Source: Candidatus Freyarchaeum deiterrae
Lineage (GTDB): Archaea; Asgardarchaeota; Jordiarchaeia; Jordiarchaeales; Jordiarchaeaceae
Direction: 5' to 3'
Length of the DNA: 64,000 nucleotides
Assembly (NCBI GenBank): GCA_037305845.1
Contig: CP147778.1
Coordinates: forward strand, 928,001 to 992,000
The position numbers and the translations under genes are program-made. This document shows positions 54,539-60,730 of this stretch, in pieces; position 1 is the stretch's first letter, and the number at the start of each line of letters is the position of its first letter. The notes under the pieces were generated by a model. The model was not told the DNA's origin. It saw only the letters and a list, made by a program, of their open reading frames with translations, and did no database searches.

Positions 54539-55153
54539 TTAGCGCGACTCCGCTATTACCTTGTAAAGTTCTTCTATGTTTTCTCCTGTTAGAGCGGATA
54601 TGGCTACGCTCTTATGATCAGGAAACGCGTCGTAGACCAGCTTGGGACGCGAATGAGGTAGGTCTATCTTGTTTGCAATGATAATGTTCGGTATGTTTTT
54701 TGCTTTCAGGTTTCCCAGAATAACAAGGTTAACCTGGTCGAAGGGCACCTTCGTGGTATCGAAGATGGTTAGAGCGAGGTCTACGTTGTCAAGCCATTGG
54801 ATAGCTTCAACCACACCTTTAGTAGCTTCTTTGGCTCTTTCAATTGCTTCCTCTTTCGATAATCCGTGCTTTAAAAAGGCCTTATAATCGACTTTACTAG
54901 AAATGCCGGGCATGTCTACAACATTCATTTTGAGGCGTCTTCCATTGTAGTGCATCTCTAGATGTTCTACGACGTTAGCGGTACGAGTTTCGTGTGGAAT
55001 AGGGGAAGCTTTCCCAGCTTCTTTTCCCATCCAGTCGGTGCAGATTCTATTTGCAAGAGTTGTTTTACCAGCGTTAGGACTACCATAAATGCCGAGTGTA
55101 AACTCACCATTTCTCCTAAAGGCACCCGAAACTTTTGAGAACCAGTCTACCAT
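54539..55153 (-). CDS. Era-like GTP-binding protein (OapA-like)
   Basis: GSPNAGKT, PHETR, DMPG, NKID, SAL. Confidence 0.88.
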   Translation of the reverse strand: MVDWFSKVSGAFRRNGEFTLGIYGSPNAGKTTLANRICTDWMGKEAGKASPIPHETRTANVVEHLEMHYNGRRLKMNVVDMPGISSKVDYKAFLKHGLSKEEAIERAKEATKGVVEAIQWLDNVDLALTIFDTTKVPFDQVNLVILGNLKAKNIPNIIIANKIDLPHSRPKLVYDAFPDHKSVAISALTGENIEELYKVIAESR

Positions 55154-56726: not shown

Positions 56727-56869
56727 AAGTGAAAAAGAGCGTACCCCGATAAAAAAAACATTTTTTTCTTTTTATGTTCAAAATAAAATGTTTCAGACTT
56801 AGGAAAAGTGGGAGTTAGTAAACTTTTTATAGTTTTATTTTGCTTTCAGTAAGTAGGGAAAGTGGTCTC

Positions 56870-57559
56870 ATGAAGCTTCTCGGCGCGGCTAAAATAAGCG
56901 ATAAGAACAGGATAACCCTATCAAAGGAGGTAAGAGATAAGTTAAAAGTAGACTCGGGGGATCTCCTTCTATTCTTTGAAGATGACGAAGGAAACGTTTT
57001 GGTTTGTACAGAGAACACCTTACCCTCAGGAAAAAGCGGCGTAGAAGCCCTTAAGTTGCTGGTAACCGGTCCCTACAGCGCTGGGAAGAGCACCGTTGTT
57101 TCTAATCTATCGAGAAAAGCTGCAAACATAGAGGCCTTCGGGACCACGGTTGGCCTAGACTTTGGTAGGAAATACGACGAGGTTAATGTTTTAGACATTC
57201 ACATTTTCGGTACTCCGGGTCACAAGCGTTTCGCCTTCCTGCAGGAGATACTCGCTCAGGGAAGCGCTGGGGTTCTCTTGGTGGTTGATAGCACAAATCC
57301 CGAAACCTTCAGTTTAGCTCAAGACATACTCTACCGAGTGAAGAGGGAGATAAGTGAAGACGCCCCCATCGTTATTTTGGCCAATAAGCAAGACCTAGAG
57401 GGCGCTCTATCACCCGAAGAAGTGGCCAAACAGCTGAACGTTGGAGTAGATGTACCAGTTGTGGGTACGGTAGCCACGCAGAATCAGGGCCTGAGAGAAG
57501 CCTTACAATTAATACTTAAACAAATAAGTAAAAAAGCGGAAAAAAAGACAAACGAATGA
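56870..57559 (+). CDS. AbrB/SpoVT DNA-binding domain fused to MglA/Arf-like small GTPase
   Basis: KISDKNRITLSKEVRDKLKVDSGDLLLF; GPYSAGKS, TTVGLDFG, GTPGH, NKQD. Confidence 0.85.
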   Translation: MKLLGAAKISDKNRITLSKEVRDKLKVDSGDLLLFFEDDEGNVLVCTENTLPSGKSGVEALKLLVTGPYSAGKSTVVSNLSRKAANIEAFGTTVGLDFGRKYDEVNVLDIHIFGTPGHKRFAFLQEILAQGSAGVLLVVDSTNPETFSLAQDILYRVKREISEDAPIVILANKQDLEGALSPEEVAKQLNVGVDVPVVGTVATQNQGLREALQLILKQISKKAEKKTNE

Positions 57560-57676: not shown

Positions 57677-58717
57677 TTAGTCTTCTATTTCGAATGTTCT
57701 TCGTATCGCCTTAATTATATGTAGTATTGAAGCGTTTTCTAGCTCTGAGGCAGTTATCAGTCCATCCTGAGAGATTATTAGGGGAACCGTTATCTCTTCT
57801 TCGGTGATTCCACCATGGCTTCCCTCTGTTTTCATATCTCCTAGCTCATAGCCCTTTTCAGCTGTTACAACTAAGTCGCCGCTTCTTGGATGGAGAAGTT
57901 TTAACTCGGAAATTCGTTCACTTTCCATAACTTCTTGGATGCCCTTGGTTTCAGTTAGAAATTCGTATATCTGGTGCTTTTGTTCTGGGGTGTTGATGTA
58001 TACGTGGGAGGTTCTATGGGTGGCTAGTGTGATAGCATCTAGATTTTTTTGTCTGAGTAGTTTGTTTAGTTGAATTTGTCTTTTGCCATCGGTCATCCCG
58101 TGGTCTGCGGAAACAATCATGCAAACTTCTTGGCCTTGGGAGTGATACACCTCAAAAATTTTCTTTAGAGCTTTATCTACGTCCTCAACGATTTTTATGG
58201 TTTCTTTGCTATTTGGTCCGTAAGTTTCTCCTATACTGTCAACTGCGGTATAGTTTGCTACTATAAGGTCTGGTTTTTCTTTTTTTATTAGTTTGATAGA
58301 TTCTTCTAATACTTTGCTATTCTGGGTTAGAACTGGGAAACTTTGAATGTAATTTTTCGAAACAATGTGTTTTGCCCCTTTTGTGACTGGTTCTGCTATA
58401 GCCGCTGTTTCTAATCCGGCTGAACTCGCTTCTTCGAAAATGGTTGCCGCTTCAATGCTAGCATTAGGGTCATAAAAGTCAAAATTTCTCGATTCCTTAG
58501 CTTCCCTATCATAGAACAGATTACCAACTATACCGTGCTCTTCAGGATATGTCCCGGTAATTATGGAGGCATGTCCGGTATAGGTTGCTGAGGGAAACAC
58601 CGTTTGGCAGGACATGGTAGATACGCCGTTATTTGACAGTTGGCTCAAGAAAGGGGTCTTTGAATTTTTTATCCAATTGACATTGCAGCCATCAAGAACC
58701 GCTAGGTAAACCTTCAT
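57677..58717 (-). CDS. Alkaline-phosphatase-superfamily (NPP-type) hydrolase
   Basis: LDG, FPSATYTGHASIITG, SADHG, GSHGG. Confidence 0.88.
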   Translation of the reverse strand: MKVYLAVLDGCNVNWIKNSKTPFLSQLSNNGVSTMSCQTVFPSATYTGHASIITGTYPEEHGIVGNLFYDREAKESRNFDFYDPNASIEAATIFEEASSAGLETAAIAEPVTKGAKHIVSKNYIQSFPVLTQNSKVLEESIKLIKKEKPDLIVANYTAVDSIGETYGPNSKETIKIVEDVDKALKKIFEVYHSQGQEVCMIVSADHGMTDGKRQIQLNKLLRQKNLDAITLATHRTSHVYINTPEQKHQIYEFLTETKGIQEVMESERISELKLLHPRSGDLVVTAEKGYELGDMKTEGSHGGITEEEITVPLIISQDGLITASELENASILHIIKAIRRTFEIED

Positions 58718-58786: not shown

Positions 58787-60038
58787 ATGTATTTTCAGGA
58801 TATTATACACGGTGAGATTAGACCTGATGAACTAGGGTTAAACCTTCTTAAAACAGATACGATGAAGTCTCTTTCAGGCAAAATGGACATAGGCAATATT
58901 AACTTGGTTTATCCTGACGCTAAGCATACTCGACTTGAGCATTGCTTGGGAGTTATGTATACTGCAAACGAGATTTGCAGCTCCCTTTCAGGAAAAGGCT
59001 ATGAAATTGATGAAGAAGCAGTAATCATTAGACTCGCTGGACTGCTCCATGATATAGGGCACGGGCCTGAAGTGTTCTAACACTTTAGGGTGTAAACCTT
59101 TCTCACACGGGTCGGAGATAATATTTCAAGAAAAAACCGGTCTCACCCATGAACAAATGAGTCAAAAGATAATACGGGAGAAAACATCAGATATTAACTC
59201 GGTGCTTAGAAACTCAGGGATTAGCGACAAGGAAATCAGTGAAATTGCAGACATGATTCTCGGAGTGAATAAGAGGAGACCATTCTTAGGAGAAATAATT
59301 CACTGGATGGTGGACGCTGATAAACTGGACTATCTTCCCAGAGACTCACACTCGACTGGATTTTTACCATCCCTAGTTCAAAGCGCCCCCATAATTGATT
59401 CTATAAAACTTTCTGAAGAACATATAGTTTTTGATAAAAGCGCGATTCCCTACTTGGAGTCTATGGTTTTCGCTGAAGCTTTATACTACAACAACATTCA
59501 TCATCATCCATTAGTGAGAAAAGCTGATCAGACCCTCTCGAGAGCGATAAAAATTGCAATTGAAAAAGGTGCGACAAAACCCCTAGATATACAAAGGATG
59601 ACCGATAACCAGATTATAAATTTCCTCAAAAAAATGGGAGAAAAAGCAGCCCATCTAGTATTAAGAATGCAAAATAAGCCATTACACACTATTCTAACTA
59701 TAAACTGGGAAGAACTCGACAAAGATGCGATAAAACAAGTGTTAAAAATAAAGGATAACTACCAGAAAAGAGAGAAATTGGAAAGCGCCATCGCTAGTCA
59801 CGTCGGCGATGACCCAGATTTCGTCATGTTGGATATACCTCCGCTTCCATACATTCAGGAGGCGGATACGCCTATCATAACCGAAGAAGAAGAGGTAAAA
59901 CTGCTTAAAGGGGTCTCAAACTTAACCAGAGTGATAAGTGAAAATCACTATAACCAGTGGAGCCTTTGTGTCTACTCCGAAAAAGAGTGTAAAAAAAGCA
60001 TGGAAAGCCTTAGAGAATTCCTCTTATCCCAAATTTAG
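58787..60038 (+). CDS. HD-domain dNTP triphosphohydrolase-like (SAMHD1/YwfO type), two exons 58787-59064 and 59096-60038, 406 aa after splicing
   Basis: DIIHG, HTRLEHCLG, LLHDIGHG+PFSH, HE, DADKLDYLPRD. Confidence 0.88.
59065..59095 (+). other. 31-nt bulge-helix-bulge intron in a protein-coding gene
   Basis: AGG/CCT outer helix, GCAC/GTGT 4-bp helix, GGG and AAA 3-nt bulges, 10-11-bp internal hairpin; removal restores HGPFSH. Confidence 0.85.
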
Positions 60039-60202: not shown

Positions 60203-60730
60203 ATGTCTGGAGAATACGACTACCTGTTCAAGATAATCGTAATCGGTGATGGTGCGGTTGGAAAAACCAGCCTAACCGTGAGATTTTCACAGGGATACTT
60301 CAAAGAAGATTACAAGATGACAATAGGCGTAGATTTTGCTGTAAAAACAGTTACTATTGACACGAATAATGGGTCTAAAACCGCTAAGCTACAGATTTGG
60401 GATACTGGTGGTCAAGAGAGGTTTTCTTACATTCGTCCTTTGTATTATCGTGGTGCTATGGGTGCTCTTTTGGTTTATGACGTTACTAAGCGGGAGACTT
60501 TTGAACATCTAGAGGGCTGGTTAGCTGAGGTTGGTAAGCATTGCCCTTCGATTCCTATGGTGATGGTTGGTAACAAGACCGATATGCCGGGTAGAGCTGT
60601 TTCTTTAGAGGATGCTTTGGAGTTTTCGATTGATCGTAATATGATGTACTTTGAGACCAGCGCTAAGCAAGGAACCAATGTAGAGTTTGCGTTTAGCGAT
60701 CTTACTAGAATTCTGATTGATTACATGTAG
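60203..60730 (+). CDS. Rab-like small GTPase
   Basis: GDGAVGKT, IGVDF, KLQIWDTGGQERF, YYRGA, LVYDVT, NKTD, ETSAK. Confidence 0.95.
   Translation: MSGEYDYLFKIIVIGDGAVGKTSLTVRFSQGYFKEDYKMTIGVDFAVKTVTIDTNNGSKTAKLQIWDTGGQERFSYIRPLYYRGAMGALLVYDVTKRETFEHLEGWLAEVGKHCPSIPMVMVGNKTDMPGRAVSLEDALEFSIDRNMMYFETSAKQGTNVEFAFSDLTRILIDYM

Follow-up and report, generated by a model that had tools for sequence, protein, structure and literature searches.

How can a gene whose reading frame is broken within a conserved catalytic motif give rise to a complete enzyme? This question is raised by an HD-domain hydrolase gene of Candidatus Freyarchaeum deiterrae (assembly GCA_037305845.1), located in a 64,000-nt stretch of contig CP147778.1 (positions 928,001 to 992,000 of the forward strand), which we refer to as the window and which is part of a single 3,576,204-bp contig; coordinates are those of the window unless another sequence is named. 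The gene appears as two open reading frames (ORFs): ORF 58787–59080 matches positions 1–40 of the Pfam HD domain, and ORF 59157–60038 matches HD_assoc_2. When the 31-nt insert at 59065–59095 is deleted, a continuous open frame of 406 residues containing HDIGHGPFSH is obtained. We conclude, with a probability slightly above nine in ten, that the insert is a true pre-mRNA intron, which folds into a bulge-helix-bulge (BHB), is excised by two cuts of the tRNA splicing endonuclease EndA, and leaves exons that RtcB ligates so that the full enzyme is translated. The elements of the locus are as follows.

58787–59064, plus strand: exon 1 of the HD hydrolase gene, from Met1 to the GG of the Gly codon after HDIGH, with the R..EH and HD metal-ligand motifs (PF01966).
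59065–59095, plus strand: predicted BHB intron of 31 nt, frame-shifting, with an in-frame TAA at 59078–59080.
59096–60038, plus strand: exon 2 of the HD hydrolase gene, with the third base of the Gly codon, PFSH, THEQ, DADKLDY, the HD_assoc_2 region (PF19276) and the stop.
59056–59062, plus strand: exon-side 5' strands of the BHB, outer helix AGG (59056–58) and central helix GCAC (59059–62).
59063–59065, plus strand: 5' bulge GGG with the predicted cut after 59064; GGA in 10 of the 10 other intron-bearing orthologs.
59066–59089, plus strand: intron hairpin of 10 bp with a 4-nt loop; three pairs with two-sided changes across orthologs.
59090–59099, plus strand: 3' strands of the BHB, central helix GUGU (59090–93), invariant bulge AAA (59094–96, predicted cut after 59095) and outer helix CCU (59097–99).

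The archaeal enzyme EndA cuts after the second nucleotide of each BHB bulge, and RtcB ligates the ends. By this rule, the transcript would fold locally into the BHB, a two-subunit EndA would cut after 59064 and after 59095, and RtcB would join the exons to read CAC-GGA-CCU. The spliced mRNA would encode the 406-residue hydrolase, and the unspliced RNA an inactive fragment of 97 residues that, from its reading frame, ends before the remaining catalytic His residues and before the distal Asp. The intron would persist because a site in a catalytic motif tolerates only exact removal, with selection preserving the fold. HGPFSH is restored by five deletion registers (starts 59065–59069), of which the BHB register alone gives a GGA codon and the other four give GGG; the allele thereby has a diagnostic junction, GGA if the EndA rule applies and GGG by any other register.

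An earlier note, made from the DNA letters alone, had described the split gene, its insert, the BHB and the EndA cuts. On recheck, the gene, the 31 nt and every BHB coordinate were right, and the cuts reproduced the in-frame HGPFSH and the 406 residues. Two details required revision: the 2-nt hairpin loop of that description cannot form, the stem having 10 bp and the loop 4 nt (UCUA), and although the catalytic motif HDIGH/PFSH is indeed split, the intron lies in the Gly codon after HDIGH, outside the HD dyad. The insert is real DNA and no assembly error; five other Logan assemblies of the species carry it in identical form. A search of the genome for a second copy of the insert found none.

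First, we consider the fold itself. The central 4-bp helix is flanked by further helices and by two 3-nt bulges, one on each strand. Among 200,000 shuffles of the insert, a fully paired central helix (4/4) with at least four inner pairs arose in 0.03%, and ten inner pairs never arose. In a strict genome-wide scan for BHBs, a check that had been proposed beforehand, the HD BHB ranked fifth of 57 short strong BHBs, after cbf5, kae1 and two that resemble tRNA T-loop introns, and the frame-rescuing BHBs were led by cbf5, kae1 and the HD gene. When relaxed and combined with a codon model, the scan gave too much noise for an intron count and seemed to lose known cases; its lead to pcm alone was used.

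Second, the intron is present at the same site in ten further orthologs from metagenomes and metagenome-assembled genomes (MAGs), giving 11 distinct orthologs in all, and exon 2 of the relatives is 62–79% identical to that of this gene. RNAalifold, run on the alignment of the 11 sequences, returns the BHB unaided as the consensus. Of the cells scored, 97.8% are paired, versus 28–61% for slid-partner controls, and the central helix is paired in 44/44 cells by way of G-U/G-C/A-U and C-G/U-G/U-A variants, with the limit that these cells come from related sequences and are not independent events. Two-sided changes occur at five BHB pairs, and all 11 sequences share the 3' bulge AAA; ortholog L041 carries another stem, of 29 nt, within the same BHB and the same frame. 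The comparison of orthologs, which had been called for, thus revealed both a shared site and covariation. In eight of nine orthologs compared, the intron differs at 1–7 of its 31 bases, and four-fold sites there differ at 30–59%. The ratio of nonsynonymous to synonymous divergence (dN/dS) of the exons is 0.10–0.22 among intron-bearing orthologs versus 0.13–0.18 among intronless ones; synonymous divergence (dS) among the former reaches 1.7 with the catalytic motifs intact. The gene is therefore not decaying, and neutral decay of both exons, which had been named as a refutation, is contradicted. The EndA cut rule yields full frames of 405–406 residues in 8 of the 11 orthologs.

The distribution of the intron is patchy. 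Five congeneric GTDB genomes have the ortholog without it, and the closest of these reads GGA CCT, identical to the predicted spliced junction; two more orthologs outside the congeners also lack it. A pattern search of 400 Asgard genomes for an insert of 16–46 nt at this site matched this genome only, so the relatives with the intron lie outside that set, in metagenomes and MAGs. The trees do not reject a single clade of intron-bearing orthologs (approximately unbiased test, p-AU 0.39), and the DNA tree requires two changes; one gain, a gain followed by a loss, and two gains are hence all compatible with the data.

Third, the genome encodes candidates for the enzymes. There are two EndA genes, both intact, one with the Y/H/K catalytic residues and the other without the His, which fits a two-subunit (alpha + beta) enzyme. 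The single-copy rtcB (L098, G000:C1 ~1452800, minus strand) carries a 29-nt hairpin insert of its own at PD|AH; elsewhere, rtcB has in-frame stops in G002 and G005 and is whole in G006 and G011. These EndA and RtcB proteins would be the enzymes that act on the HD transcript. Introns are present in 92–95% of the tRNA genes of this genome (PMC11291895).

Several other protein genes are interrupted. In cbf5, the break falls within the catalytic Asp codon (G|AT), as in the published crenarchaeal gene. Wherever it was recovered in genomes of the same order (10/10), kae1 is split at one site, as it is in two genomes of another family; its introns (L069–L073, L051, L067) measure just 13–14 nt in family f2, and 28 and 30 nt, AU-rich, in two 1.4-Mb genomes of family f3, which is probably Odinarchaeia. 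The gene pcm (protein-L-isoaspartate methyltransferase) has a 32-nt BHB intron at ISAP|HM (L105, G000:C1:2244134-2244165, plus strand); G002, G005 and G006 have the gene split at that profile position too, which makes four genomes of the order in all, and G011 has it whole. Elsewhere in the genome, a canonical 33-nt BHB (L033, G000:C1:2636158-2636190, minus strand) rescues the frame VMVHEMLG|MRIAQIY of what appears, by eye, to be a LeuC/aconitase-family large subunit. Matches to cbf5 at G028:C200:25045-25338 and G021:C1:383841-384134 begin at profile position 17 in short frames, which suggests that two more Asgard families have the cbf5 intron. At G000:C1:219758 and 223153 (plus strand), roughly 3.4 kb from each other and without a long open frame, lie two strong BHB-like folds (89 and 83 nt) that are nearly identical.

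Would such an intron serve as a switch? The earlier note had proposed that splicing gates the enzyme. As a refinement of the intron interpretation, splicing efficiency could vary with EndA/RtcB load, temperature or stress and turn the enzyme on, as in HAC1/XBP1; this fits an unspliced RNA that encodes a dead fragment, a marginally stable BHB with competing registers, a sole rtcB that is itself interrupted, and a strongly conserved intron sequence. We regard it as unlikely, though of the alternatives it survives best. The five congeners and the two other orthologs keep the gene without the intron, which shows the intron to be dispensable and leaves the proposed gate unsupported; the interrupted genes (cbf5, kae1, pcm, rtcB and HD) are functionally unrelated; and stem pairing suffices to explain the conservation, as L041 swaps the whole stem. 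Given congeners that manage without it and the lack of any functional link among the interrupted genes, we favour constitutive over regulated splicing; the intron is most likely spliced as a matter of routine, as one of several in protein genes of the lineage.

Finally, an exactly joined form of the gene exists in a related species. The 90% cluster of split protein P0005 includes a 405-residue member, P0034, that is identical across exon 2. Its contig, SRR28530378_22805 (3,979 bp), shows no mismatch to SRR28530383_57036 (4,010 bp) over 3,156 nt compared, and lacks exactly the 31 nt of the latter at the ends predicted for EndA; this deletion is reproduced by two registers, those at the EndA cut, and by no others. 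A prediction was set beforehand: if run SRR28530378 holds RNA, kae1 should be joined there too. Apart from two Logan members, the close relatives of Kae1 are fragments; these two are of full length and match a split pair from other contigs exactly, and the full-length contig that was traced belongs to SRR28530378 and has the junction CT|A, as predicted. In this run, kae1 and HD are intronless at L108:9414-9450 and L107:2214-2260, respectively, and the other contigs of the organism carry both introns. The second full-length Kae1 contig is P0194, of 9,612 bp. A search for a publication that names SRR28530378 found none. The best reading, though not a proof, is that the joined HD and kae1 contigs are spliced RNA.

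A number of observations weigh against the intron interpretation, in addition to the limit on the covariation counts given above. The BHB fold lies 0.3 kcal/mol above the minimum-energy fold, and the ensemble probability of the full central helix at 37 °C is just 0.2–0.3 in the allele of this genome and no higher than 0.02 in L087 and L040. The first intron base (59065) is G in this genome alone and A in the ten relatives; placing A there in silico approximately doubles the central-helix probability. Three orthologs do not give a full frame as assembled: L088 is one base short just after the intron, so that the EndA rule fails to restore the frame; in L089 the frame shifts by one base further along exon 2, in a C run, and a 292-residue member of its cluster is free of the shift; and L091 ends early. 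The library type of SRR28530378, RNA or DNA, is unverified, and its joined contigs include intergenic stretches and genes of both strands, a pattern commoner for DNA. Those contigs come from a related species; a joined form of this species' own allele, with bulge GGG, was not found, and its splicing is a prediction from the relatives.

The last points bear on whether the joined contigs could be intronless DNA alleles, or an artefact of library or assembly, in which case the intron could still be real. The lengths of the contigs (4 and 12.6 kb), their coverage of both strands and the ends that the HD contig shares with the intron-bearing one are in line with this, and exact loss of an intron from DNA has been proposed for cbf5 (PMC2738675). 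We nevertheless consider it improbable, somewhat more so than a regulatory gate. It requires two exact losses in unlinked genes without a single substitution in 3,156 nt, which is unlikely in DNA; intronless kae1 was seen in no genome of the order; and the HD site in that species has no direct repeat. The deletion is also asymmetric to the hairpin, with the 5' central strand kept and the 3' strand removed, which matches EndA cleavage and is unlike polymerase slippage. For these reasons, spliced RNA is preferred.

Could the insert instead be skipped during translation, by ribosomal bypass or frameshift? In this allele, CCU stands before and after a 28-nt hairpin gap, reminiscent of matched take-off and landing codons, but 4 of the 11 orthologs lack the codon match and keep the BHB, the stop lies three codons after the take-off codon and not directly after it, and bypass would not make a joined nucleic-acid form; we give this explanation hardly any weight. 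A pseudogene, transposon footprint or assembly error is just as implausible, and the data on selection and covariation already refute most of this reading. In its favour, the insert is flanked here by a CCT triplet, loss of function could be made good by an intact paralog, and three orthologs have other lesions as assembled. Against it, the five other assemblies agree, the insert is common to 11 orthologs under the purifying selection described above, and the CCT repeat is missing in L086, L087, L040 and L041, with no other insert copy in the genome. Group I and group II self-splicing introns have a ribozyme core of hundreds of bases and are ruled out by an insert of only 29–31 nt.

We therefore retain the pre-mRNA intron. 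Splicing of the HD mRNA by EndA and RtcB, as first proposed from the sequence, is supported by conservation, covariation, purifying selection and the joined contig of the related species, and the presumed Asgard host is supported by close protein hits labelled Freyarchaeota or Jordarchaeaceae. Very probably, these microbes splice ordinary mRNAs. Introns in conserved motifs are best read as survivors at sites where exact removal alone is tolerated. It is likely, with less certainty than for the HD intron itself, that Jordarchaeales routinely carry out protein-catalysed splicing of many mRNAs, non-essential metabolic genes included, that the introns of individual genes come and go within a single genus, that SRR28530378 contains the spliced products of two genes, and that the interrupted rtcB renders the system partly dependent on itself. 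If true, mRNA splicing would be a general process in relatives of eukaryotes, and many Jordarchaeia genes would at present be annotated as fragments.

The encoded protein has the HD and HD_assoc_2 architecture (PF01966 + PF19276) with the metal ligands H..HD..D. It is closest to Aquifex 2HEK (E 4e-33), with SAMHD1 more distant (E 9e-14), and it shares with SAMHD1, EF1143 and 2HEK the domain order and the motifs R..EH, HD.GH, PFSH, HE and D.DK.DY..RD; metal and catalytic residues are retained. In SAMHD1, the residues of the deoxynucleoside triphosphate (dNTP) pocket and the allosteric residues include Arg and Gln of RLxxIxQLG as well as Arg and Tyr of R..Y..VY.H. Here, these stretches read SLSGKMDIG and EALYYNNIHHH. 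The whole subfamily differs from SAMHD1 and EF1143 in having other residues in place of the IxQLG Gln, the Arg before it, and Arg and Tyr of R..Y..VY.H, so that a dNTPase specificity should not be presumed. An intact 440-residue paralog (L045, G000:C1:1648378-1649700, minus strand) has canonical QRLRRIRQLAG and ARLELFKTIYFHK motifs and, judged by these, is the better candidate for the cell's dNTPase; the identification of the split gene as a SAMHD1-like dNTPase is thus unsupported. Its substrate is probably a nucleotide-like phosphate other than a canonical dNTP. An antiviral-type role is likewise unsupported, as no Pfam hit of the neighbours indicates defence. The adjoining gene is as follows.

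57677–58717, minus strand: divergent NPP/alkaline-phosphatase-family gene, 69 nt from the HD start and outside the intron; paired with the HD gene in intron-bearing and intronless relatives.

In most relatives this head-to-head arrangement recurs with a Rab-like GTPase downstream. Around the locus in the window are three small GTPase genes (54539–55153, 56840–57559 and 60203–60730), one of which, by eye, seems to have an AbrB-like segment fused to its N-terminus. Ahead of the HD start lie the AT-rich TTTAAA (58757) and GGTGA (58773); a sigma-70 promoter scan is not applicable to archaea.

How does the HD intron relate to known systems? A literature search for Asgard mRNA introns, with subscription papers largely outside its coverage, found no report, and within the literature searched, published archaeal coding-region splicing is that of cbf5 only. 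The BHB intron of Haloferax HVO_1309 (Schwarz 2020, PMC7714728) is likewise an mRNA substrate of the archaeal splicing endonuclease, but it lies in the 5' UTR (untranslated region), outside the coding region, and leaves the reading frame unaffected. The non-canonical tRNA introns of Freyarchaeia and Atabeyarchaeia (PMC11291895; bioRxiv 10.64898/2026.10.13.758758) resemble the HD intron in size range, motif, genome and repeated gains; these papers concern tRNA genes, and a search of them by terms turned up no coding-region introns. IRE1-dependent splicing of HAC1/XBP1 (review PMC13149111) is similarly non-spliceosomal, with a protein nuclease followed by ligation and a shifted frame, and to that extent the likeness drawn in the earlier note stands; it differs in its nuclease, in its two-stem-loop recognition motif and in being a signal-controlled switch, the part of the likeness that does not hold. 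The cbf5 pre-mRNA introns of Desulfurococcales and Sulfolobales (Yokobori 2009, PMC2738675) are, like the HD intron, short, located in the coding region at a catalytic-motif site, bounded by BHB ends, patchy among relatives and found in hosts with a hetero-oligomeric EndA. Unlike the crenarchaeal case, the HD intron interrupts a hydrolase gene in the Asgard phylum, is one of several interrupted genes in its genome, and is predicted to be spliced in this allele.
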